From contig JBAZWG010000001.1 of NCBI GenBank assembly GCA_041660505.1, forward strand, positions 675,768 through 719,008: a DNA stretch of 43,241 bases, read 5' to 3'. Both the position numbers and the translations under genes were made by a program. Within the stretch, counting starts at the first letter, position 1, and each line of letters starts with the position of its first letter. Below are positions 7,467-38,332 of this stretch, piece by piece. The stretch comes from Minisyncoccota bacterium. Lineage in GTDB: Bacteria; Patescibacteriota; Minisyncoccia; Phycocordibacterales; JACRKE01. Under the pieces are notes generated by a model. The model was given only the letters and a program-made list of their open reading frames with translations, was not told where the DNA came from and did not search any database.

Positions 7467-8204
7467 ATGAATGTAGTTGTATTGGCGGCGGGTGAGGGTA
7501 AACGCATGGCGGCAGACGGGATGCCGAAGGTTTTGGTACCCTTGAAGGGCAAGCCGCTTATTTCGTACGTGCTCGAGGCGATACGCGCTTCGGGCGCCGA
7601 TGCTCATCCGACATTGGTTATCGGTGTCCACGCCGAGCTCGTCGAAAAAACTCTAGGCACGCAATATAATTATGTCATCCAAGCAGAACGTCTCGGCACC
7701 GGCCACGCGGTACAATGCGCGCAGGCCTTGCTTGAGCCGGAGGCCGATGACGTGCTCGTGCTCTACGGCGATCATCCGCTTGTGTCGGCGAAGATGATAA
7801 AAGATTTGGTGCGTGCACATAAGTCCGGCAATAACACGCTCACAATGGCGACGACAACCGTCCCTGATTTTAAAGATTGGTACGCCGGCTTTTACGACTT
7901 CGGCAGGATTATTCGCGCCGAGGACGGCACTTTGGAAAAGATTATAGAGAAAAAAGACGCAACGACAGAAGAACTTGAAATAAAAGAAGTGAACCCAGGC
8001 TATTATTGTTTCAAGTCTGCCTGGCTCTGGCCGGCTCTCAAAAGCATAAAGAACGACAATGCGCAGAAAGAATATTATCTCACCGATTTATTGGCGCTTG
8101 CGGTAAAAGATGAAGAAAAAATCGGCAGTGTCGAGATAGACCCCGAAGAAGCGCTCGGTGTTAATACTAGAGAACAGCTTGCCCTTGTCGAGACCTTACT
8201 TTAG
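7467..8204 (+). CDS. sugar-phosphate nucleotidyltransferase (GlmU N-terminal-domain-like)
   Basis: 245 aa. Starts MNVVVLAAGEGKRM..PKVLVPLKGKP (the LAAGxGxR signature). No acetyltransferase hexapeptide domain is present. Confidence 0.75.
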   Translation: MNVVVLAAGEGKRMAADGMPKVLVPLKGKPLISYVLEAIRASGADAHPTLVIGVHAELVEKTLGTQYNYVIQAERLGTGHAVQCAQALLEPEADDVLVLYGDHPLVSAKMIKDLVRAHKSGNNTLTMATTTVPDFKDWYAGFYDFGRIIRAEDGTLEKIIEKKDATTEELEIKEVNPGYYCFKSAWLWPALKSIKNDNAQKEYYLTDLLALAVKDEEKIGSVEIDPEEALGVNTREQLALVETLL

Positions 8205-8211
8205 CCTCACT

Positions 8212-9324
8212 CTAACTTTTGTAAACTCCGAGCAGTTTATCGGTGCAGGATTCTATGCTGAAATCATTTGCTCTTAACTTAGCTTCTTTAGATTTCGCTG
8301 TGCGAATCTCCGAGTTATTCAAAAGCAGAGAAACTTTTTCCGCGAATTTCTCGAGATCCTCTGGGACAAGATAACCGCCATTGTCTCCAGCCAAGGTGTC
8401 TTCGACGCCGCTTGCTTTGACGGCCACGACCGGCGTACCGCAAGCGAGCGCTTCGAGTGTGGTTAAGCCTTGAGTCTCTGTCGTCGAGGCGGAGAGAAAT
8501 ACTTTGGCACCCGCGACCAGAGGGAAGAGTTCGCCATGCTTGATGAATCCTGTCAGATGAATCCGGTCATGTACAGGAGAAGCTTTGACTATCTCGCGCA
8601 ACTCATCTTCATACGGCCCGCCGCCGGCTATTATGAAATGAATGTCGGGGTGAGATTTCGAAACAAGCACAAAGGCCTTTACCAAAAACGCAAGATTCTT
8701 TTCTCTGCCTATCCGACTCATACTCATAATATAAGGGTAGGCTTTTGGTTGTGGTTGCAAATTATCGAAATCATCAAAATTGACCCCCGATGGCAAGACA
8801 TGCACAGGAACACTCACGCCATAATCCGTAAGCAGGCGTTTGACGGCGGTTGAGGGAGCGATGCAGGCATCGTGGCGGTTCATATAGATAGCCACGAACT
8901 TCTTTACGCCGTACTTGCTGATTATCTCCGGCGCAGGGAAGTAGTGCAGATATTCCTCAAGATTTGTGTGATAAGTGTGCACAGAACGGATACCGAAGAG
9001 TCGGGCCGCGCCGATACCAAGCAGGCCGATAGAACCCGGCGTATGGGTATGAATAACATCGAACTTCTCTTTCCTGATATTATTGACGAGTCGCGGGTCG
9101 TAAGGCAAGCTTAGTCTGAAGTCGGGGTAGGCGTAGTATGATAAAGAGGGAATGCGCGTGTTGTCCGGATGTGCAGTATGTTCTTCTCTAAAAAAAGCAT
9201 TCTTGGGCGAATATATCTTTACCGTGTGTCCGCGCTTCTCCAACTCGGCCGTGTAAGTCTTAATGGAGCTGACGATGCCGTCGATCTTGGGCTCGTAAGT
9301 GTCCGTGAACATCCCGATATGCAT
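8212..9324 (-). CDS. glycosyltransferase family 4
   Basis: The track ORF extends to 9426, but the homologous N-terminus begins at MHIGMFTDTYEPKIDGIV (ATG at 9324). The C-terminal part has an E-x7-E-like GT4 region (TETQGLTTLEALACGTPVV). Confidence 0.85.
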   Translation of the reverse strand: MHIGMFTDTYEPKIDGIVSSIKTYTAELEKRGHTVKIYSPKNAFFREEHTAHPDNTRIPSLSYYAYPDFRLSLPYDPRLVNNIRKEKFDVIHTHTPGSIGLLGIGAARLFGIRSVHTYHTNLEEYLHYFPAPEIISKYGVKKFVAIYMNRHDACIAPSTAVKRLLTDYGVSVPVHVLPSGVNFDDFDNLQPQPKAYPYIMSMSRIGREKNLAFLVKAFVLVSKSHPDIHFIIAGGGPYEDELREIVKASPVHDRIHLTGFIKHGELFPLVAGAKVFLSASTTETQGLTTLEALACGTPVVAVKASGVEDTLAGDNGGYLVPEDLEKFAEKVSLLLNNSEIRTAKSKEAKLRANDFSIESCTDKLLGVYKS

Positions 9325-9389
9325 GGGGTAATAATACCATAAAATCAGTGCCTTTTCTCGCCAATAGAATTCATGGTAGGATATACCAT

Positions 9390-9761
9390 ATGGCCAATAT
9401 AGAAGGCAATAATCAATCAGAAACAAAGTGGGCTATTTGGGGCCCGCTAGTGAATGGCGTAGAAACCTTTATAAGAGACGGCCATCTTGATGACATTAAG
9501 CCAGAATTACCAAAAGAACAACAAGGGTATTTGTCACATATCGGGCTACTGATGTTGGACTATCAGCCAGTTGTCGACAAAGGCGAGACAGAAGAAGAAA
9601 AAAGAGCTTCCGCAAGCATGCAGAGATATACGAAAGTCATTGCTGACATTTTCCAAAAAGAAAATCATAAAATCAGCGCAGAGGAACTCTCAGAATTAAA
9701 AACCGCTCTGGCCGAACTCCGCGAATCACTACGAGAGCTTGTTTCTACTCCAAATGGGTAA
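9390..9761 (+). CDS. hypothetical protein
   Basis: Open frame only; I recognise no motif. Likely ATG at 9390 (MANIEGNN...). Its last codons lie in the duplicated recG-tail segment 9745..9774. Confidence 0.45.
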   Translation: MANIEGNNQSETKWAIWGPLVNGVETFIRDGHLDDIKPELPKEQQGYLSHIGLLMLDYQPVVDKGETEEEKRASASMQRYTKVIADIFQKENHKISAEELSELKTALAELRESLRELVSTPNG

Positions 9762-9778
9762 GTTTTGAGTTTTTCCCC

Positions 9779-9805
9779 AATTTCGGAGGTCCGACCTCCG
9801 AAATT
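9779..9805. repeat. REP-A palindrome copy 1 (AATTTCGGAGGTC-C-GACCTCCGAAATT)
   Basis: Perfect 27-bp palindrome around a central C, 9 nt upstream of the RAYT-1 start codon. Confidence 0.95.
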
Positions 9806-9814
9806 CGTGTTATC

Positions 9815-10495
9815 ATGATGGATATGGAGCGCATATTGGAAACCGACTGTTTTTACCATATCTATAACCGAGGCACGAACAAGCAGGAAATTTTTCACGA
9901 CGAAAGTGACTATCTTCGGTTTGTTCACTATCTTTATGTTTGTAACGACCGCGCATTGATGGAGAAGGTCTTCGCCGAATCAATAATCGGAGGTCCGACC
10001 TCCGAAAATTCTCATAAACGGGAATTGTTGGTTGATGTTGTCTGTTTCGCTCTTATGCCGAACCACTTTCATCTCATGCTGAATCAGAGGAAAGATGGCG
10101 GAGTAAGCAAGTTCATGCAAAAGCTTTGCACTGCGTACACCATGTACTATAATCATCGTTATAAACGCACCGGCGTATTATTCCAGGGAAAGTACAAAAG
10201 CATACCCGTACTTGATGAGCAGTACCTGCCAATCCTAGTGCGATACATTCACTTAAATCCTGTCGAGCTTGATGTGTCAGCAACAAAAACCGAAGGCGGA
10301 ATGATCTCATATCTGAAAAATTATCGCTGGTCAAGTTGCCCAGATTACCTTGGTCAGGCAAACTTTCCCTCAATCATATCAACGGACCAGTTTGCGGAGA
10401 TATTTGAAGATTATGAAGAACACCAGGAATTTTTGGTCGAGAATATTGGAGATGGGTTTATGAGTTCAGAAAAGAGGCTGTTTATCGATTTATAA
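9815..10495 (+). CDS. IS200/IS605-type Y1 (HUH) transposase-like protein, REP-associated (RAYT-like) 1
   Basis: 226 aa. YHIYNRG N-terminal motif, HUH motif NHFHLML, and YRTGVLFQGKYKS...YIHLNPV with the candidate catalytic Tyr. Flanked by REP-A palindromes in inverted orientation. Confidence 0.8.
   Translation: MMDMERILETDCFYHIYNRGTNKQEIFHDESDYLRFVHYLYVCNDRALMEKVFAESIIGGPTSENSHKRELLVDVVCFALMPNHFHLMLNQRKDGGVSKFMQKLCTAYTMYYNHRYKRTGVLFQGKYKSIPVLDEQYLPILVRYIHLNPVELDVSATKTEGGMISYLKNYRWSSCPDYLGQANFPSIISTDQFAEIFEDYEEHQEFLVENIGDGFMSSEKRLFIDL
9987..10005. repeat. REP-A palindrome copy 2, inside the RAYT-1 ORF
   Basis: TCGGAGGTC-C-GACCTCCGA. Read in frame it gives IIGGPTSEN. Confidence 0.95.
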
Positions 10496-10501
10496 GAATA
10501 A

Positions 10502-10520
10502 TCGGAGGTCGGACCTCCGA
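10502..10520. repeat. REP-A palindrome copy 3 (central G, opposite orientation)
   Basis: TCGGAGGTC-G-GACCTCCGA, 6 nt after the RAYT-1 stop codon. Confidence 0.95.
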
Positions 10521-10641
10521 CAATTGGGCACAAGGGTTGTTGTAAGGACAAAAAGCGTGCGATTGCGTAAATTTTCACTTGTGATAGCCTTTTGTTAATA
10601 CTGTACCAATCACCCGCAACGAAAGAGAGGGAAAAGGTCTC

Positions 10642-11082
10642 ATGGTTGACATCAACAAACGACTGAAGGCCGAGGGCGTTGACCTGACTGGAGGAAACGC
10701 CACATTACTTGTGGAGCTTGCCAAGGATCTGGCTGTAATCGAACGCCAAATGAATGGCTTGTTCTGCAAGTTTCGTGAAGAGTTTCACGGCTCAAGCTTC
10801 GACCTATCGTTTCGGCCGATTACCAAGGGCAGACTCTTCGACAGTTTCAAGATTGAGGGTGTCCAGGTGGACATTCTCCTCTCGTCAGACATAGGCAGCT
10901 CGGATGCCAAGAGTATTTTCTGGGCTTTTGGCAAGCGAGTCGATTGCGAATGGAAGGATGGGCGACTCACGCTGCCGAAGATGCACTACTGGGTCCACGG
11001 GGGGAAAGACGACTTCGATCTCGCTGGCTGGGCCGAGAATCTCGAGAAGATCAACGGGCCTGCGAACGGAAAAAAGGAGTGA
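10642..11082 (+). CDS. hypothetical protein (orphan ORF inside the REP-bounded cassette)
   Basis: 146-aa open frame with no recognisable motif. By eye it is more GC-rich than its neighbours. It lies between REP-A copies 3 and 4. Confidence 0.45.
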   Translation: MVDINKRLKAEGVDLTGGNATLLVELAKDLAVIERQMNGLFCKFREEFHGSSFDLSFRPITKGRLFDSFKIEGVQVDILLSSDIGSSDAKSIFWAFGKRVDCEWKDGRLTLPKMHYWVHGGKDDFDLAGWAENLEKINGPANGKKE

Positions 11083-11140
11083 TTGGAAGCGGTGGCCGCG
11101 GGCAGAGCAATCTCCCGCGGCCGAAGCATTTCTACAGTGA

Positions 11141-11169
11141 ATAATTCGGAGGTCGGACCTCCGAATTAT
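11141..11169. repeat. REP-A palindrome copy 4 (29 bp, central G)
   Basis: ATAATTCGGAGGTC-G-GACCTCCGAATTAT, a perfect palindrome. The recG stop codon (11166..11168) lies in its right arm. Confidence 0.95.
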
Positions 11170-13388
11170 TCCAGATGGGTAAGTTTTGAATTTTGGATGT
11201 GGGTCGCTAACGCGGGATACTTTCTGAGTTCGGGGTCTTTGAAGATAAGCGCTTTGGCTTCGGCTCTGGCGGCTTCGACCATCTTTATATTTTTTATTGC
11301 TTCCATACCTAGATCAGAAATGCCCCATTGTTTACTGCCGGAGAGCTCGCCGCCGCCTCTTAACATCAGGTCTTGCTCGGCTAACTCAAAGCCATTTTTG
11401 GCATCTTTAAGCGCCAGCAGGCGCAATAGAGATTTTTCTGATTTAGAATCGGTGAAGACATAGCAATACGGCTGATAACTGCTTCTTTGCACCCGGCCTC
11501 TTAATTGGTGGAGTTGGGCTAGACCGAATCTTTCCGCACCTTCTATAATAATTATTGTGGCATTCGGTACGTTCACGCCGACTTCAACGACCGATGTTGC
11601 GACTAATATATCCAACTTGTGTTCAGAAAAATCATGCATTATTTTTTCTTTCTCTTTCGGGTTCAATTTGCCGTGCATGACGCCTACTGCATATTCTTGA
11701 AATATAGTTTTTTGCAATCGTTCTGCCTCGGCAGTCACCGACTTGGCCAGTATCGCCATTTCTTTGGTCGGATCAGGCTCGTTAATTCTCGGGCAGATTA
11801 TGTAGAGTTGGCGTCCGGTCTTCATTTCTTTCTTTATCTTCTCGTAAACTTCATCTCTTTGCGCTGGCAAGACGATGTCGGTGACGATTTGTTTGCGGCC
11901 AGCAGGGAGTTCGTCGAGTAAAGTTAAATCTAAATCGCCGTAGATTGTTAAAGCAAGCGTGCGCGGGATGGGCGTTGCTGTCATGGAAAGTAAATGCGGA
12001 ACAGGAGATAGGAGATGGGAGTTTGGAGATGGGGTGGATTCCCTAACTCCTAACTCCAAACTCCTAACTTCTGCGCGCTTGTTTGCAAGCGCGCGTCTCT
12101 GCATGACACCGAAGCGGTGCTGTTCATCTATAACGACAAATGCTAGATGCTTAAATTTTACTGATTTTTGTATTAACGCGTGCGTGCCGACGAGGATTGC
12201 GATCTCGCCGTTCGCCACCCACTTGAGGAGTTGGGTGCGTGAGATATCGGTCCAACCGTCGGGATTAATTTTCGACGGGAATTTTTTACAACCACTGCCG
12301 GTGATGAGGGCGATGTTTACCGGCAGATGTTTAAAGTAAGAGATGAAAGATTCGAAGTGTTGCTTGGCCAGAATCTCCGTTGGTGCCATATAGGCTGTTT
12401 GCAGAGTGCCGAAGTCTTGCTTCCCGGGCTTGGTGTTCATTGCGGCATACGCTGTTGTAGCCGCCACAGCTGTCTTTCCCGAGCCGACATCACCTTCCAA
12501 GAGACGCAACATCGGCTTACCGGATTTGAAGTCAGAAAGTATTGTTTCTATTGCCGAAATTTGTGCCACTGTAGGTTTGAACGGGAAACGACTCATGAAT
12601 TCTTTTACGACCTCTGTCCTCGGGCTGATTTGAAAAGTTGGATTAGCTTCATATGCTTGACGCATCATCTGGCGCGAGAGTTGAATGAAGAAAATTTCTT
12701 CAAAGGCGAAGCGTTTGCGCGCAGCAATAGCGTCTTCGTCGCGTTTGGGAGTGTGTATCCAGACGAGCGCGGTTTTATATGACGGTAAATTGTAACGCGC
12801 AAGTATCTCTTTCGGAATCGGATCTTGTAAAAGTTCATGGACTTTGGCGCGAAGTAATTTCTGAACGCTATGCTGAAGCCAAAGCGAAGTAACACCTGAC
12901 GTCTCTGGATAAACTGGTGTTGCAGTAATTTCTCCTTTCTCGAAGAGCGATCCCTCGCTACCCAGATCAATTCCTGATATTGACTCAAGCTCCGGGTTGG
13001 CTAGATATAGTTCTCCGTTCCTATCCTGCACTGTGCCGGTCAGGCGGGCATAAGCGCCTTCCGGAACCTTCTTGGCCATGTAGGCTTGATGGAACCAGAT
13101 TGCTTTGATCTTGCCAGTGTTGTCCGCGACATGGAGTTCGGCCATCGGGATTTTACTTCTGTATCCCTTTAGAGTTTTGGAACTTATAATTTGTGCGGTG
13201 ATGCTTGCGTAGTCACCGGCTTTGAGGTCTTGAATTTTCTTGAGCTCCGCCTTTTCTCCATAATGCGCGGGGAAGTGGCGCAATAAGTCTGACGCGGTTG
13301 CAATACGCAATTTTGTAAGCCCCGCGCGTTGGGGCGGGGTGAGGCGAAATATCTCTGCAAGTGGAGTATTAGGCTGTACTATCGCCAT
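11166..13388 (-). CDS. recG: ATP-dependent DNA helicase RecG
   Basis: 740 aa. Wedge/OB N-terminal region, Walker A GDVGSGKT, VIDEQHRFG, MTATPIPRT and QLHQLRGRV. Confidence 0.93.
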   Translation of the reverse strand: MAIVQPNTPLAEIFRLTPPQRAGLTKLRIATASDLLRHFPAHYGEKAELKKIQDLKAGDYASITAQIISSKTLKGYRSKIPMAELHVADNTGKIKAIWFHQAYMAKKVPEGAYARLTGTVQDRNGELYLANPELESISGIDLGSEGSLFEKGEITATPVYPETSGVTSLWLQHSVQKLLRAKVHELLQDPIPKEILARYNLPSYKTALVWIHTPKRDEDAIAARKRFAFEEIFFIQLSRQMMRQAYEANPTFQISPRTEVVKEFMSRFPFKPTVAQISAIETILSDFKSGKPMLRLLEGDVGSGKTAVAATTAYAAMNTKPGKQDFGTLQTAYMAPTEILAKQHFESFISYFKHLPVNIALITGSGCKKFPSKINPDGWTDISRTQLLKWVANGEIAILVGTHALIQKSVKFKHLAFVVIDEQHRFGVMQRRALANKRAEVRSLELGVRESTPSPNSHLLSPVPHLLSMTATPIPRTLALTIYGDLDLTLLDELPAGRKQIVTDIVLPAQRDEVYEKIKKEMKTGRQLYIICPRINEPDPTKEMAILAKSVTAEAERLQKTIFQEYAVGVMHGKLNPKEKEKIMHDFSEHKLDILVATSVVEVGVNVPNATIIIIEGAERFGLAQLHQLRGRVQRSSYQPYCYVFTDSKSEKSLLRLLALKDAKNGFELAEQDLMLRGGGELSGSKQWGISDLGMEAIKNIKMVEAARAEAKALIFKDPELRKYPALATHIQNSKLTHLE
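12004..12071. repeat. inverted pair of heptamer arrays (GGAGNTN)x4 / (CTCCNAN)x4 inside recG
   Basis: GGAG recurs at 12004, 12011, 12018 and 12025. CTCC recurs at 12047, 12054 and 12061, with CTTC at 12068. A 6-9 nt spacer separates the arms. Confidence 0.9.
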
Positions 13389-14034
13389 GTACGGTATGTC
13401 CTTTGTGTATCAGTTCATAATCGGTTTTGAAAAGGTATTGCGCGATACGGAAGATGCTGTATGTGATGAAGAACGCGGCGAAGACGTCGATGGAATAATG
13501 TTTGTGCCCGAGGATAGCGGCTGTGCCGAAAATAACCGAAAGAAAGAAAAAGAAAGAACGTGCGTACTTATTCCGCCAAAAAACCAGACCGACCAAGAAT
13601 GGCCCGCCGGTGTGGCCGGAAAAAAATAGATCACCACCGAATGTCAGCTTGCTCGCAAAGAAATTCGCGGCAGGTATTATCTCATGCTGTGGTGCGATAT
13701 GAGTCAGAATTATAAAGAAAGAACGTATCAGAATAAAAAGACTCATACTTTTCGCGAAGAATGGGAAATAGCGCGGTTTATATAGAAGCAACATTGTCAC
13801 GACTGTCCACATTATAACTGCGCCCTGCACATAAAGAAGTTCCACATCCCAAGCCGGTATCCGATCAAGGAGAAGGTCGCTGACTTGATTGCTGATAGAT
13901 TCGGTTGCATAGGTACCTGCGAAATAGTTGATACAGAAGCTTAAAGTCAGCATTAGAAGGCCTACTGCCGAAGAGGCCAAGAAAGCACGGTCGCGTATAC
14001 GAGTGTGCAAGTCGAGTTGTTTAAGCTTGTCCAT
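13369..14034 (-). CDS. PAP2_C / sphingomyelin-synthase-like integral membrane phosphotransferase
   Basis: 221 aa and multi-TM. Contains GGDLFFSGHTGG and HKHYSIDV motifs, which correspond to the SGHT and HYxxDV boxes of the PAP2_C family. Overlaps the recG start by 20 nt. Confidence 0.65.
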   Translation of the reverse strand: MDKLKQLDLHTRIRDRAFLASSAVGLLMLTLSFCINYFAGTYATESISNQVSDLLLDRIPAWDVELLYVQGAVIMWTVVTMLLLYKPRYFPFFAKSMSLFILIRSFFIILTHIAPQHEIIPAANFFASKLTFGGDLFFSGHTGGPFLVGLVFWRNKYARSFFFFLSVIFGTAAILGHKHYSIDVFAAFFITYSIFRIAQYLFKTDYELIHKGHTVHGDSTA

Positions 14035-14053
14035 ACGTGTTACTATTGGCTAT

Positions 14054-14656
14054 ATGTTCTTCGGTACGGCTTCGATTATAGCATTGATTGAGCACTATGG
14101 GTATACCATTATTTTCCCGATTTCGATCGTCGAAGGGCCGGTCGTCACGCTTATTTCCGGCTTTTTGGTTTCGCTCGGGCTGTTGAACGCCTTCGGTGTC
14201 TTCTGTGTTCTTGTTGCCGGTGACTTGGTTGGTGACACATTATATTATTTCATCGGCCGATGGGGCAGAGAGGGATTCGTTCGCCGTTGGGGTAAGTACT
14301 TTGGCCTCACGCCAGAACGCGTTGCCCACGTGCGGGAATATTTCCACACACGAGGGTGGAAGCTACTTTTACTTTCGAAGGCGCATGGTGCCGGCTCTCT
14401 CGTTCTTTTCTCCGCAGGTGCGGCCGAGATGCCATATCCCAAATTCTTATTTTATAATTTTGTCGGTACCGTTCCGCGCGTGTTCATTCTGGAAACAATC
14501 GGCATTTACGGTGGCGCGAGCTTCGCTCTCATTAATCAGTATGTGAACGGTGTTGCGGCGGTATTATCTGTTGTCTTCATTCTCGCAGTTGCTTGGTGGT
14601 TTTATAAACGGTCAGGAGGTGAGTCCTCCGGCAGAGGCGGAGGTCTCACCTCCTGA
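14054..14656 (+). CDS. DedA/SNARE-associated family membrane protein
   Basis: From the ATG at 14054: MFFGTASIIALIEHYGYTIIFPISIVEGPVVTLISGFL..., a typical DedA N-terminus. The track ORF start at 13928 overlaps the divergent upstream gene. Confidence 0.8.
   Translation: MFFGTASIIALIEHYGYTIIFPISIVEGPVVTLISGFLVSLGLLNAFGVFCVLVAGDLVGDTLYYFIGRWGREGFVRRWGKYFGLTPERVAHVREYFHTRGWKLLLLSKAHGAGSLVLFSAGAAEMPYPKFLFYNFVGTVPRVFILETIGIYGGASFALINQYVNGVAAVLSVVFILAVAWWFYKRSGGESSGRGGGLTS
14612..14656. repeat. family-C palindrome (GGAGGTGAGTCCTCC ... GGAGGTCTCACCTCC)
   Basis: Outer arms TCAGGAGGTGAG / CTCACCTCCTGA and inner arms CCTCCG / CGGAGG. It encodes the DedA tail SGGESSGRGGGLTS and contains the TGA stop. 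Confidence 0.9.
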
Positions 14657-22589: not shown

Positions 22590-22614
22590 CACTTGGAAGC
22601 TTAGCTTCCAAGTG
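22590..22614. repeat. REP-B palindrome copy 1 (CACTTGGAAGCT-T-AGCTTCCAAGTG)
   Basis: Perfect 25-bp palindrome, 13 nt upstream of the RAYT-2 start. Confidence 0.95.
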
Positions 22615-22627
22615 CTAGAATTAGTGT

Positions 22628-23305
22628 GTGAGAAATATCGAATTTGCCGAAGACGAGTATTATCATATATTTAATCGGGGCGTAGAAAAACGTAGGATTG
22701 TTTCCGATGCGTACGATGTAATCAGGTTCATGGAGAGCCTGACACAATTTAATGTAGAGGACCCGATAGGAAGTATCTTTGAAAACCAGTTCGGAAATCA
22801 GGCTACACAATCGACACAAAAGCCACGCAAGCTTGTTGATATAGTGGCGTATTGTTTGAATCCGAATCATTTCCATTTGCTTTTGCAACAAAAGTTGGAA
22901 AATGGTATTCCGAAATTTCTGCACCGTTTTGGTACGGGGTACACGAAATACTTCAATCACAAATACAAACGAACAGGGTCATTATTTCAAGGCACTTTTA
23001 AAGCAAAATACATAGATGATAATGACTACCTACTGCACGTAAGCGCGTATGTTAACTTGAACTTTAAGGTTCATCGGTATAACAAAGAAGATGTTAGAAA
23101 TTTTGTGCGAACCAGCTTGGAACAGTATACGACAGCGCGGAAAGGCATTGCTGTACCCAAGACAATTCTTGAACAATTTGCGAACAAAAAAGAATATGAA
23201 GCTTTTGCGGAAGATTCGCTCGACCTCATGTTAGACCACAAACAAGAATCAAAAGAATTAGAAATGCTGATAAAGGAAGACTCGGATACTGACTTGGAAG
23301 CTTAG
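22628..23305 (+). CDS. IS200/IS605-type Y1 (HUH) transposase-like protein, REP-associated (RAYT-like) 2
   Basis: 225 aa with a GTG start. YHIFNRG, HUH motif NHFHLLL, and KRTGSLFQGTFKAK...YVNLN. It is a paralogue of the 9815..10495 gene, with its own flanking palindromes. Confidence 0.75.
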   Translation: MRNIEFAEDEYYHIFNRGVEKRRIVSDAYDVIRFMESLTQFNVEDPIGSIFENQFGNQATQSTQKPRKLVDIVAYCLNPNHFHLLLQQKLENGIPKFLHRFGTGYTKYFNHKYKRTGSLFQGTFKAKYIDDNDYLLHVSAYVNLNFKVHRYNKEDVRNFVRTSLEQYTTARKGIAVPKTILEQFANKKEYEAFAEDSLDLMLDHKQESKELEMLIKEDSDTDLEA

Positions 23306-23314
23306 CTTCCAAGT
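23292..23314. repeat. REP-B palindrome copy 2
   Basis: ACTTGGAAGCT-T-AGCTTCCAAGT. The RAYT-2 TAG stop (23303..23305) sits at the palindrome centre. Confidence 0.95.
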
Positions 23315-23317
23315 GAC

Positions 23318-35715: not shown

Positions 35716-38332
<2,617 letters not shown>

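Follow-up and report, generated by a model that had tools for sequence, protein, structure and literature searches.

A resident RAYT/REP array beside recG in a Minisyncoccota genome, with an orphaned recG terminus as the probable scar of an illegitimate joining at a REP flank

We analysed a stretch of 43,241 nucleotides (nt) from the genome of a Minisyncoccota bacterium (contig JBAZWG010000001.1, positions 675,768 to 719,008; hereafter the window). In it, a gene of the REP-associated tyrosine transposase (RAYT) type, RAYT-1, stands among four copies of a repetitive extragenic palindromic (REP) element, REP-A, next to the helicase gene recG, and the last 30 nt of recG recur, orphaned, on the other side of the array. 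We consider it probable, at roughly 60%, that this locus is a resident and vertically inherited RAYT/REP system, or REPtron, of a lineage of Paceibacteria within the candidate phyla radiation (CPR), and that the orphaned recG tail is the scar of an illegitimate joining at a REP flank. According to this reading the array between a GT4 glycosyltransferase gene and recG would consist of RAYT-1 and four REP-A copies, the first 5' of the gene, the second within it and in frame, the third at its stop codon and the fourth against the stop codon of the convergent recG. Turnover would take place in two REP-bounded slots, from GT4 to REP-A1 and from REP-A3 to REP-A4, and the REP flanks would serve as recombination hot spots.

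RAYT-1 occupies 9824..10495 of the plus strand (the frame is open from 9815, but orthologues start with MERI, which corresponds to 9824). It is bracketed by REP-A1 (9779..9805), a perfect 27-nt palindrome with a central C which lies 5' of the gene, and by REP-A3 (10497..10525), which has a central G and follows directly after the stop codon; no strand is assigned to the palindromes. Both had been described in this form in an earlier first-pass annotation, whose general layout also stood, including an orphan open reading frame (ORF) at 10642..11082, except that it had omitted a fourth local copy. This copy, REP-A2 (9982..10010), lies in frame within the RAYT ORF, where it codes for IIGGPTSEN, and always has a central C. 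REP-A4 (11139..11171) has the central G attributed to it, but it is a perfect palindrome of 33 nt and not of 29 bp. It abuts the stop codon of recG and indeed covers it (11166-11168), as had been claimed, its right arm containing the last recG codon and the stop (GAA-TAA). All REP-A copies are predicted to form stable hairpins as single-stranded DNA (ssDNA), with -11.8 kcal/mol and a z score of -5.5 for REP-A1 and -15.1 kcal/mol for REP-A4. The 19-nt core of the palindrome, TCGGAGGTCSGACCTCCGA, occurs six times in the window against an expectation of zero, four times at this locus and as one doublet in ligA. The array is anchored on the left by the GT4 gene (8212..9324, minus strand; Pfam Glyco_transf_4 and Glycos_transf_1) and on the right by recG (11166..13388, minus strand; 740 amino acids (aa); Pfam RecG_wedge, DEAD, Helicase_C and RecG_dom3_C).

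The same array was found in three other lineages, so that the comparison comprises four: the window, the pair of loci L162/L163, L164 and L165. In L162/L163, where RAYT and recG are 88% and 86% identical to the window proteins at the aa level, the order is NTP-transferase, REP-A1, RAYT with REP-A2, REP-A3, a 239-aa membrane protein, a REP variant and recG. L164 (RAYT 76% identical) carries GT4, an unrelated 153-aa ORF, REP-A1, RAYT with REP-A2, REP-A3, a His_Phos_1 gene, REP-A4 and recG, and L165 (RAYT 76%) carries the start of GT4, about 30 nt, REP-A1, RAYT with REP-A2, REP-A3, a NUDIX gene, a REP and another ORF. The orthologous N-terminus of GT4 thus lies upstream of REP-A1 and RAYT in L164 and L165, and a REP adjoins the recG stop in L162/L163 and L164 as it does in the window. 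The bracketing of RAYT by a central-C and a central-G copy is the same in L162 to L165, and the left flank of REP-A1, TTATCCCCAATTTC, is common to the window, L164 and L165. Blocks of blastn similarity between the window and these relatives end at 9324, run again from 9770/9779 to 10520/10524 and resume at 11138/11147; the homology breakpoints between lineages coincide with REPs. What lies between the blocks differs. Slot 1, which extends from the GT4 start to the conserved REP-A1 flank (9325..9770), measures about 446 nt in the window, about 30 nt in L165 and 689 nt, with the 153-aa ORF, in L164. Slot 2 holds the gene orphan146 in the window, the membrane protein in L162/L163, His_Phos_1 in L164 and NUDIX with the other ORF in L165. 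Slot genes (window 10642-11082; L164 400-861; L162 2106-2825) are mutually unrelated and most have no family assignment; two slot contents are compositional outliers, with GC fractions of 0.53 and 0.61, the adjacent RAYT lying at 0.37-0.42. None of the slot cargo was met a second time in the 1.7 Mb compared.

These relatives emerged as the closest homologues of RAYT-1 and not from recG itself. Synteny based on recG, examined at 160 loci from GTDB species representatives and JGI metagenomes, failed because the window recG is only about 63% identical to anything there, and these best matches had neither common neighbours nor REP-A. A homologue search with the C-terminal 199 aa of recG gave nothing closer than 73% among the matches listed, and L162 was not recovered by it. 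In 1.6 Mb of recG loci from other Paceibacteria no REP-A was present, and the element is therefore specific to the clade formed by the window and L162-L165.

The repeated recG terminus consists of a left copy, DR-L (9745..9774, minus strand; CTACTCCAAATGGGTAAGTTTTGAGTTTTT), which reads as the last nine codons and stop of recG (KNSKLTHLE-TAG) and lies 4 nt from REP-A1, and a right copy, DR-R (11166..11195, minus strand; TTATTCCAGATGGGTAAGTTTTGAATTTTG), which is the functional recG terminus (QNSKLTHLE-TAA). The two are identical at 25 of 30 nt, as first reported. This similarity is non-random, being above all 200 dinucleotide-preserving shuffles of 9000-12000, in which the best direct 30-mer match was 23 and the mean 20.6. 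The minus-strand reading as recG tails was equally borne out. In the recG frame, with TAG/TAA counted as silent, only one of the five differences changes a residue; under random substitutions such a pattern has a probability of 0.004-0.023, depending on transition bias. In all 79 GTDB relatives with a readable tail recG ends in H-[F/L/W]-E-stop, and thus both copies are genuine recG termini. The left one is an orphan which at the same time ends a small plus-strand gene (9390..9761): the last 17 nt of this gene lie within DR-L, which gives it its last five codons and its stop (TAA, 9759-9761). Chance likeness or an error of assembly as the source of the repeat, in whose favour one can cite only its short length, may practically be dismissed, as the repeat falls exactly at the recG terminus, its score exceeds that of every shuffle, and a separately produced assembly of other reads (Logan SRR18595301, L081) is 100% identical to the whole locus over 5.9 kb spanning both copies. 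That Logan contig was also the sole match in exact-protein look-ups of the window genes. We also considered DR-L as a generic REP flank unrelated to recG and rejected this, since it is absent from every other REP-A copy in the window and in the relatives.

The codons of DR-L place it in time. It matches the recG tails of L162 and L164 at only 18-19 of 30 positions, against 25 of 30 for the window's own tail. At codons 4 and 7 both DR-L and DR-R read AAA and CAT, which are specific to the window; L162 and L164 read GCC/CCC and CAC there. By these codons, DR-L was copied from a recG that belonged to the window's lineage or to a very close relative, and the copying post-dates the split from lineages which already had the array beside recG. 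DR-L is younger than the array, and so the landing of the array cannot have made the repeat. This bears directly on the interpretation offered by the first-pass annotation, in which a 1.4 kb RAYT/REP cassette reaching from REP-A1 to REP-A4 inserted where the small gene and recG overlapped and duplicated the 30-bp overlap in the manner of a target-site duplication, leaving both ORFs intact. It accounts well for the fact that the repeats bracket exactly REP-A1 to REP-A4 and that each copy completes one ORF. We nevertheless regard it as very unlikely, as RAYT and all four REPs stand at this position in the three other lineages, which have neither the small gene nor a second recG tail. The uninterrupted state which was to be sought at syntenic loci does exist, in L165, but what is missing there is the small gene and DR-L and not the RAYT cassette. 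It is established for the IS200/IS605 family that Y1 enzymes of this type make no target duplications. The doubt already voiced that the repeat could be a duplication of this kind proved well founded, the relatives without DR-L having the whole array. Moreover, RAYTs are described as vertically inherited, single-copy, housekeeping-like and typically immobile (PMC5581495), and the vertical, single-copy behaviour of RAYT-1 is what is published for them. The observation made in the first pass is thus confirmed and its interpretation partly supported. An inversion between the inverted REP-A1 and REP-A4 was likewise rejected, as it would not create direct repeats outside the REPs.

We favour, instead, an illegitimate joining into a resident array, by which slot 1 of the window lineage would have gained about 0.45 kb, made up of the small gene, which has no homologue (an ORFan) and a predicted four-helix bundle, and of the recG tail. 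DR-L is situated at the right junction of this insert, just where the conserved REP-A1 flank starts on the left. The joining may be pictured in two versions, which appear about equally likely. In the first, one-sided homologous (homology-facilitated illegitimate) recombination with DNA of a close relative would have made an illegitimate joint at a T-run beside REP-A1, and the 30 nt would come from another functional recG allele, so that the two tails represent different alleles. This fits the silent-only differences and the two polarisable sites, at both of which DR-L is the derived copy, with changes that are silent in recG and non-silent in the small ORF. In the second version a replication template switch or tandem duplication would have copied the 30 nt from 1.4 kb away as junction filler, which agrees with DR-L being so near in sequence to the window's own recG tail but must lay the silent pattern partly to purifying selection on DR-R and partly to luck. 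The silent divergence on which the earlier proposal of different alleles was built is non-random, and import by recombination stays among the two explanations still in play for the scar. Only five codons of the small ORF extend into the tail, hence its apparently preserved end may be incidental and need not record an ancestral gene overlap.

Homology-facilitated illegitimate recombination combines one homologous anchor with one illegitimate joint at microhomology; foreign DNA is gained, and a brief duplication may stay behind whose two copies are different alleles. It is said to have been described during uptake of related DNA by de Vries and Wackernagel in 2002 and by Prudhomme et al. in 2002. 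The present locus would resemble it in the anchor, the microhomology joint and the short duplication with two alleles; it differs in that the junction lies beside a hairpin repeat and has no known donor.

A purely local event was also weighed, in which a tandem duplication or template switch within this chromosome joined a point 30 nt inside recG to the REP-A1 flank at the T-run microhomology and most of the left copy was then deleted or replaced, so that the tail remained. We think this doubtful, though well worth keeping in mind. If the stretch from REP-A1 to 30 nt into recG were duplicated in tandem, just such a joint would arise, DR-L followed directly by the REP-A1 flank. The joint has a T-run (TTTTT, against TTTAT in L164 and L165), and DR-L is closest to the window's own recG tail. 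The sequence before the small gene (9353-9378; TTTCTCGCCAAT|AGAATTCATGGTA) is in addition loosely like the flanks of REP-A1 (9769-9812) minus the REP core. This resemblance is marginal (p 0.35 with the REP, about 0.03 without it) and was noticed post hoc, and it is not relied on here; 9353-9378 could be an empty REP site or a chance likeness. Against a local origin, further steps are needed to explain why an ORFan, and not a second RAYT with its cargo, stands to the left of DR-L, and both changes derived in DR-L are silent in recG although such a relic would be unconstrained, for which the chance is about 0.06-0.1.

Several points also weigh against the history that we prefer, that of a resident array scarred by an illegitimate joining. 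Only four lineages were available, no genome is closer than about 76-80% nt identity, and the state before the event has not been seen. The small gene has no homologue and so no donor or source can be named for it. L162 lacks GT4, which leaves L164 and L165 alone to define the ancestral left flank. The argument from alleles comprises 30 nt, five differences and two polarised sites, and sliding identity along recG and RAYT against L163 gave no breakpoint that would mark a crossover. Slot turnover, finally, could be ordinary indel traffic merely bounded by repeats.

A more active role of the enzyme may be envisaged, in which RAYT cut ssDNA near the REP hairpins and joined the small gene, together with 30 nt of recG cut at a pseudo-site, beside REP-A1, the slots being single-strand cassettes. 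All homology breakpoints lie at REP flanks, and no two lineages have the same slot contents, among which are ORFans whose composition is foreign. Cargo genes are furthermore packed against the REPs, whose flanks supply stop codons. The sites in question are window 10491-10503 and 11160-11171, L164 2240-2250 and 2264-2278, and L165 858-866 and 1322-1332. The flank GAATAAT carries the TAA stop of the RAYT orthologues in L162, L164 and L165, the window RAYT-1 stopping two codons earlier, at TAA 10493-10495. The His_Phos_1 stop comes from the same flank, that of NUDIX in L165 from a variant, TAATAAT, and the mirror flank ATTATTC gives recG its GAA-TAA. At the junction of REP-A4 and recG in L164 there is also a 5-nt TATTC repeat. 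The chemistry itself is established, in that Y1/HUH enzymes cleave and rejoin ssDNA at the feet of hairpins, as in IS608, ISDra2 and TnpA-REP of Escherichia coli (PMC3479197, PMC3733652). We still judge the catalysed route unlikely. The small gene has no REP on its left-hand side and none separates it from the recG tail, the two ends of the repeat have no cleavage motif in common, no cargo was met a second time, and the lineages are only four. Nor is a RAYT known to act on gene-sized segments.

Taken further, and just as tentatively, RAYT and its REP hairpins might constitute a single-strand gene-capture platform in CPR bacteria. Each cassette would end in a REP whose flank supplies the stop codon, and would be inserted, swapped or lost at the REP feet by the HUH enzyme; the REP inside the ORF would have a function of its own, serving autoregulation or marking one end of the unit on which the enzyme acts, and the orphaned recG tail would be an off-target product of strand transfer. 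Hairpins of integron attC sites are recombined as single strands. If the platform existed, it would resemble attC recombination carried out by another class of enzyme. The likeness to integron cassette arrays is one of layout only, a recombinase gene being followed by closely packed, unrelated and often ORFan genes, every one of which ends at a perfect or imperfect palindrome. The enzyme here is of the HUH Y1 class, where integrons use an integrase-family tyrosine recombinase; attI and Pc are absent, and each lineage has one or two cassettes, none of which was found in two places.

RAYT-1 belongs to a large family in which the in-gene palindrome recurs. The protein matches Pfam Y1_Tnp with 37.1 bits (4e-9; cut-off 23), and its HUH motif NHFHL and the catalytic Tyr in RYIHLNP are invariant or at least 90% conserved in an alignment of 27 sequences, which, together with the four REP-A copies, agrees with its first description as a Y1 transposase resembling RAYTs and accompanied by cognate palindromes. 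In NCBIfam it matches nothing but the equivalog REP_Tyr_transpos (NF047646), at 38.3 bits and below the cut-off of 80. The family profile matched the E. coli TnpA-REP (4er8) marginally (E=0.22), and ISDra2 TnpA (2xm3) was also marginal. Judged by these scores RAYT-1 is RAYT-like, and not an equivalog of the E. coli type. More than 1650 homologues of about 225 aa were found, most annotated merely as 'transposase', and those whose source is named are almost all from Patescibacteria (CPR). RAYT-like matches in L042, L094 and L148 were set aside as a separate subfamily without the loop described below, and a scan of viral contigs found no relatives of RAYT-1.

The in-frame REP is kept inside RAYT in the window and in L162 (1503-1531), L164 (1168-1196) and L165 (343-371), about 161-165 nt past the start of the gene, in a loop before the HUH strand. 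A hairpin at the same place is present in distant members of the family, in L166 (10162-10184) and L168 (10162-10184). In L166/L167 it reads CTATAGAGG-TTTCG-CCTCTATAG and in L168/L169 TGAAAGAGG-TTTAG-CCTCTTTCA; in either case the stem is that of the locus's own flanking REPs and unlike REP-A. Compensatory changes affect five of the nine stem pairs, and none of 500 shuffles reached the observed covariation. The corresponding peptide signature [GR]-G-x-[TAPS]-S was found in the loop in 43 of the 120 closest homologues, with only 13 occurrences elsewhere in those 120 proteins. In a limited literature search we met no account of a RAYT gene that contains a REP.

Of side interest is the Sungbacteria relative L166, in which an 88-nt module made of a REP, a terminator-like hairpin and an inverted REP occurs at 9905-9990 and again at 10797-10883. 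The two copies are 91% identical and flank RAYT and an apparent tRNA-like sequence, read by eye, just downstream of it; the module has the appearance of a REPIN. The near-identity of L166 and L167 ends at about 11050, beyond which the two diverge.

Compared with known systems, the locus works like a REPtron, as represented by the RAYTs of E. coli (YafM), Pseudomonas and Stenotrophomonas, and largely qualifies as one. It shares with them a Y1/HUH protein with HUH motif and catalytic Tyr, a gene bracketed by its own palindrome in opposite orientations, a REP doublet elsewhere in the genome and a separate REP family for each paralogue. It also shares single-copy, syntenic and vertical occurrence without tnpB, the orthologues being 76-88% identical and situated at the GT4/recG locus in three other lineages; no second copy of RAYT-1 exists in the window, only a 41% identical paralogue, and no tnpB-like ORF was found near it among the window ORFs with Pfam. 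On the other hand, RAYT-1 is very divergent (38 bits against 80, with 4er8 and 2xm3 marginal) and its host is a CPR bacterium. REP-A ends bear neither a GTAG nor a CGTC tag, their flanks being A/T-rich (GAATAAT ... ATTATTC), unlike the classical GTAG REPs (PMC3733652). The cognate REP in frame in the RAYT gene, co-varying with the flanking copies, and REPs which bound variable gene slots are further departures. We therefore regard the locus as a divergent CPR variant rather than a standard member, because the equivalog score lies below the cut-off, the GTAG tag is missing and the REP copies were counted in the 43-kb window only. With IS200/IS605 elements such as IS608 and ISDra2 it has in common the catalytic fold family, subterminal hairpins recognised as ssDNA (here predicted), the lack of inverted terminal repeats and the expectation of no target duplication. 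Unlike them, the RAYT-1 unit is neither multi-copy nor mobile as a whole, keeps a fixed locus across 12-24% protein divergence and has no TnpB, and the 30-bp repeat is not a product of IS200/IS605 chemistry. The RAYT-1 locus cannot be classed as an autonomous IS200/IS605 element, nor the repeat as a target-site duplication. Another parallel is offered by intragenic REPs and Rickettsia palindromic elements, as in-frame palindromes found notably in replication and repair genes (PMC3733652), here ligA and the recG stop; in the present case, unlike those, a copy lies inside the gene of the presumed cognate enzyme, at a constant codon position across a large family, and matches the flanking REPs.

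RAYT/REP systems, with their domesticated enzyme, are known mainly from Proteobacteria. The locus reveals a large CPR-specific RAYT family of more than 1650 homologues. The four lineages whose homology breaks at REPs, together with two distant members, keep a co-varying in-frame REP. In genomes otherwise poor in mobile elements this gives testable handles, namely binding of the enzyme to its own coding sequence and REP feet as sites of recombination. The 30-bp recG repeat is a single historical scar, modest by itself, and its main value is that it sets an insertion in time with respect to the array. Further work is best directed at the co-varying REP inside the gene and at the variable slots between REPs.

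As to the slot genes themselves, the small gene (9390..9761, plus strand; 123 aa, with an alternative GTG start at 9348) had no homologue but itself in a search of 5.8 billion sequences. Its AlphaFold2 (AF2) model (pLDDT 78.5) has four helices, and a fold search matched only generic four-helix bundles. Its in-frame codon-usage score of 0.24 compares with 0.29 +/- 0.09 for the genes of the window; off frame the score is -0.64. Orphan146 (10642..11082, plus strand; 146 aa), the slot 2 cargo, has a GC fraction of 0.53 against 0.42 for RAYT and a codon score of 0.25; it found only itself among 1.84 billion representative proteins and no family in Pfam, NCBIfam, PADLOC or PHROGs, and its AF2 model (pLDDT 37) is unusable. 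Both are true ORFans, yet their in-frame codon usage is typical of the genome. After orphan146 a GC-rich hairpin, GGCCGCGGG-N11-CCCGCGGCC (11094..11122, plus strand), was read directly from the sequence and is possibly its terminator; the terminator scan did not call it because it has no T run. Promoters and terminators at the locus were at background level in the scan, PADLOC, PHROGs and Rfam gave nothing there, and it has no tRNA. To the left, the NTP-transferase (7467-8204) is 64% identical to its counterpart in L162 (538-1275), against 86-88% for RAYT and recG, which could mean differing rates or a differing history of the left flank.

A second RAYT gene of the window, RAYT-2 (22628..23305), is the 41% identical paralogue of RAYT-1 and scores 27.2 bits against NF047646 (cut-off 80). 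It has its own palindrome on both sides, CACTTGGAAGCTTAGCTTCCAAGTG (REP-B; 22591-22615 and 23292-23316), of which the downstream copy overlaps the RAYT-2 stop codon, and no REP copy inside its ORF. One enzyme with one palindrome family is the defining RAYT/REP pattern, and RAYT-1 with REP-A and RAYT-2 with REP-B fit it.

The only REP-A outside the RAYT-1 locus within the window is the doublet in ligA (38060..38100, no strand assigned), a central-C copy followed by a central-G copy in a REPIN-like arrangement, which as one long hairpin reaches a predicted -24.8 kcal/mol. It is inserted into this NAD-dependent DNA ligase gene (36251-38332) without a shift of frame, in the stretch that links the HhH and BRCT domains (assigned by Pfam), and adds about 14 residues. 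Intragenic REPs tend toward replication and repair genes (PMC3733652), and the ligA doublet agrees with this published bias. A further palindrome, GGAGGTCTCACCTCC (14639-14653), situated at the 3' end of the ORF at 13928-14656, corresponds to the top of the REP-A stem with other flanks and may be a degenerate REP-A or a coincidence.

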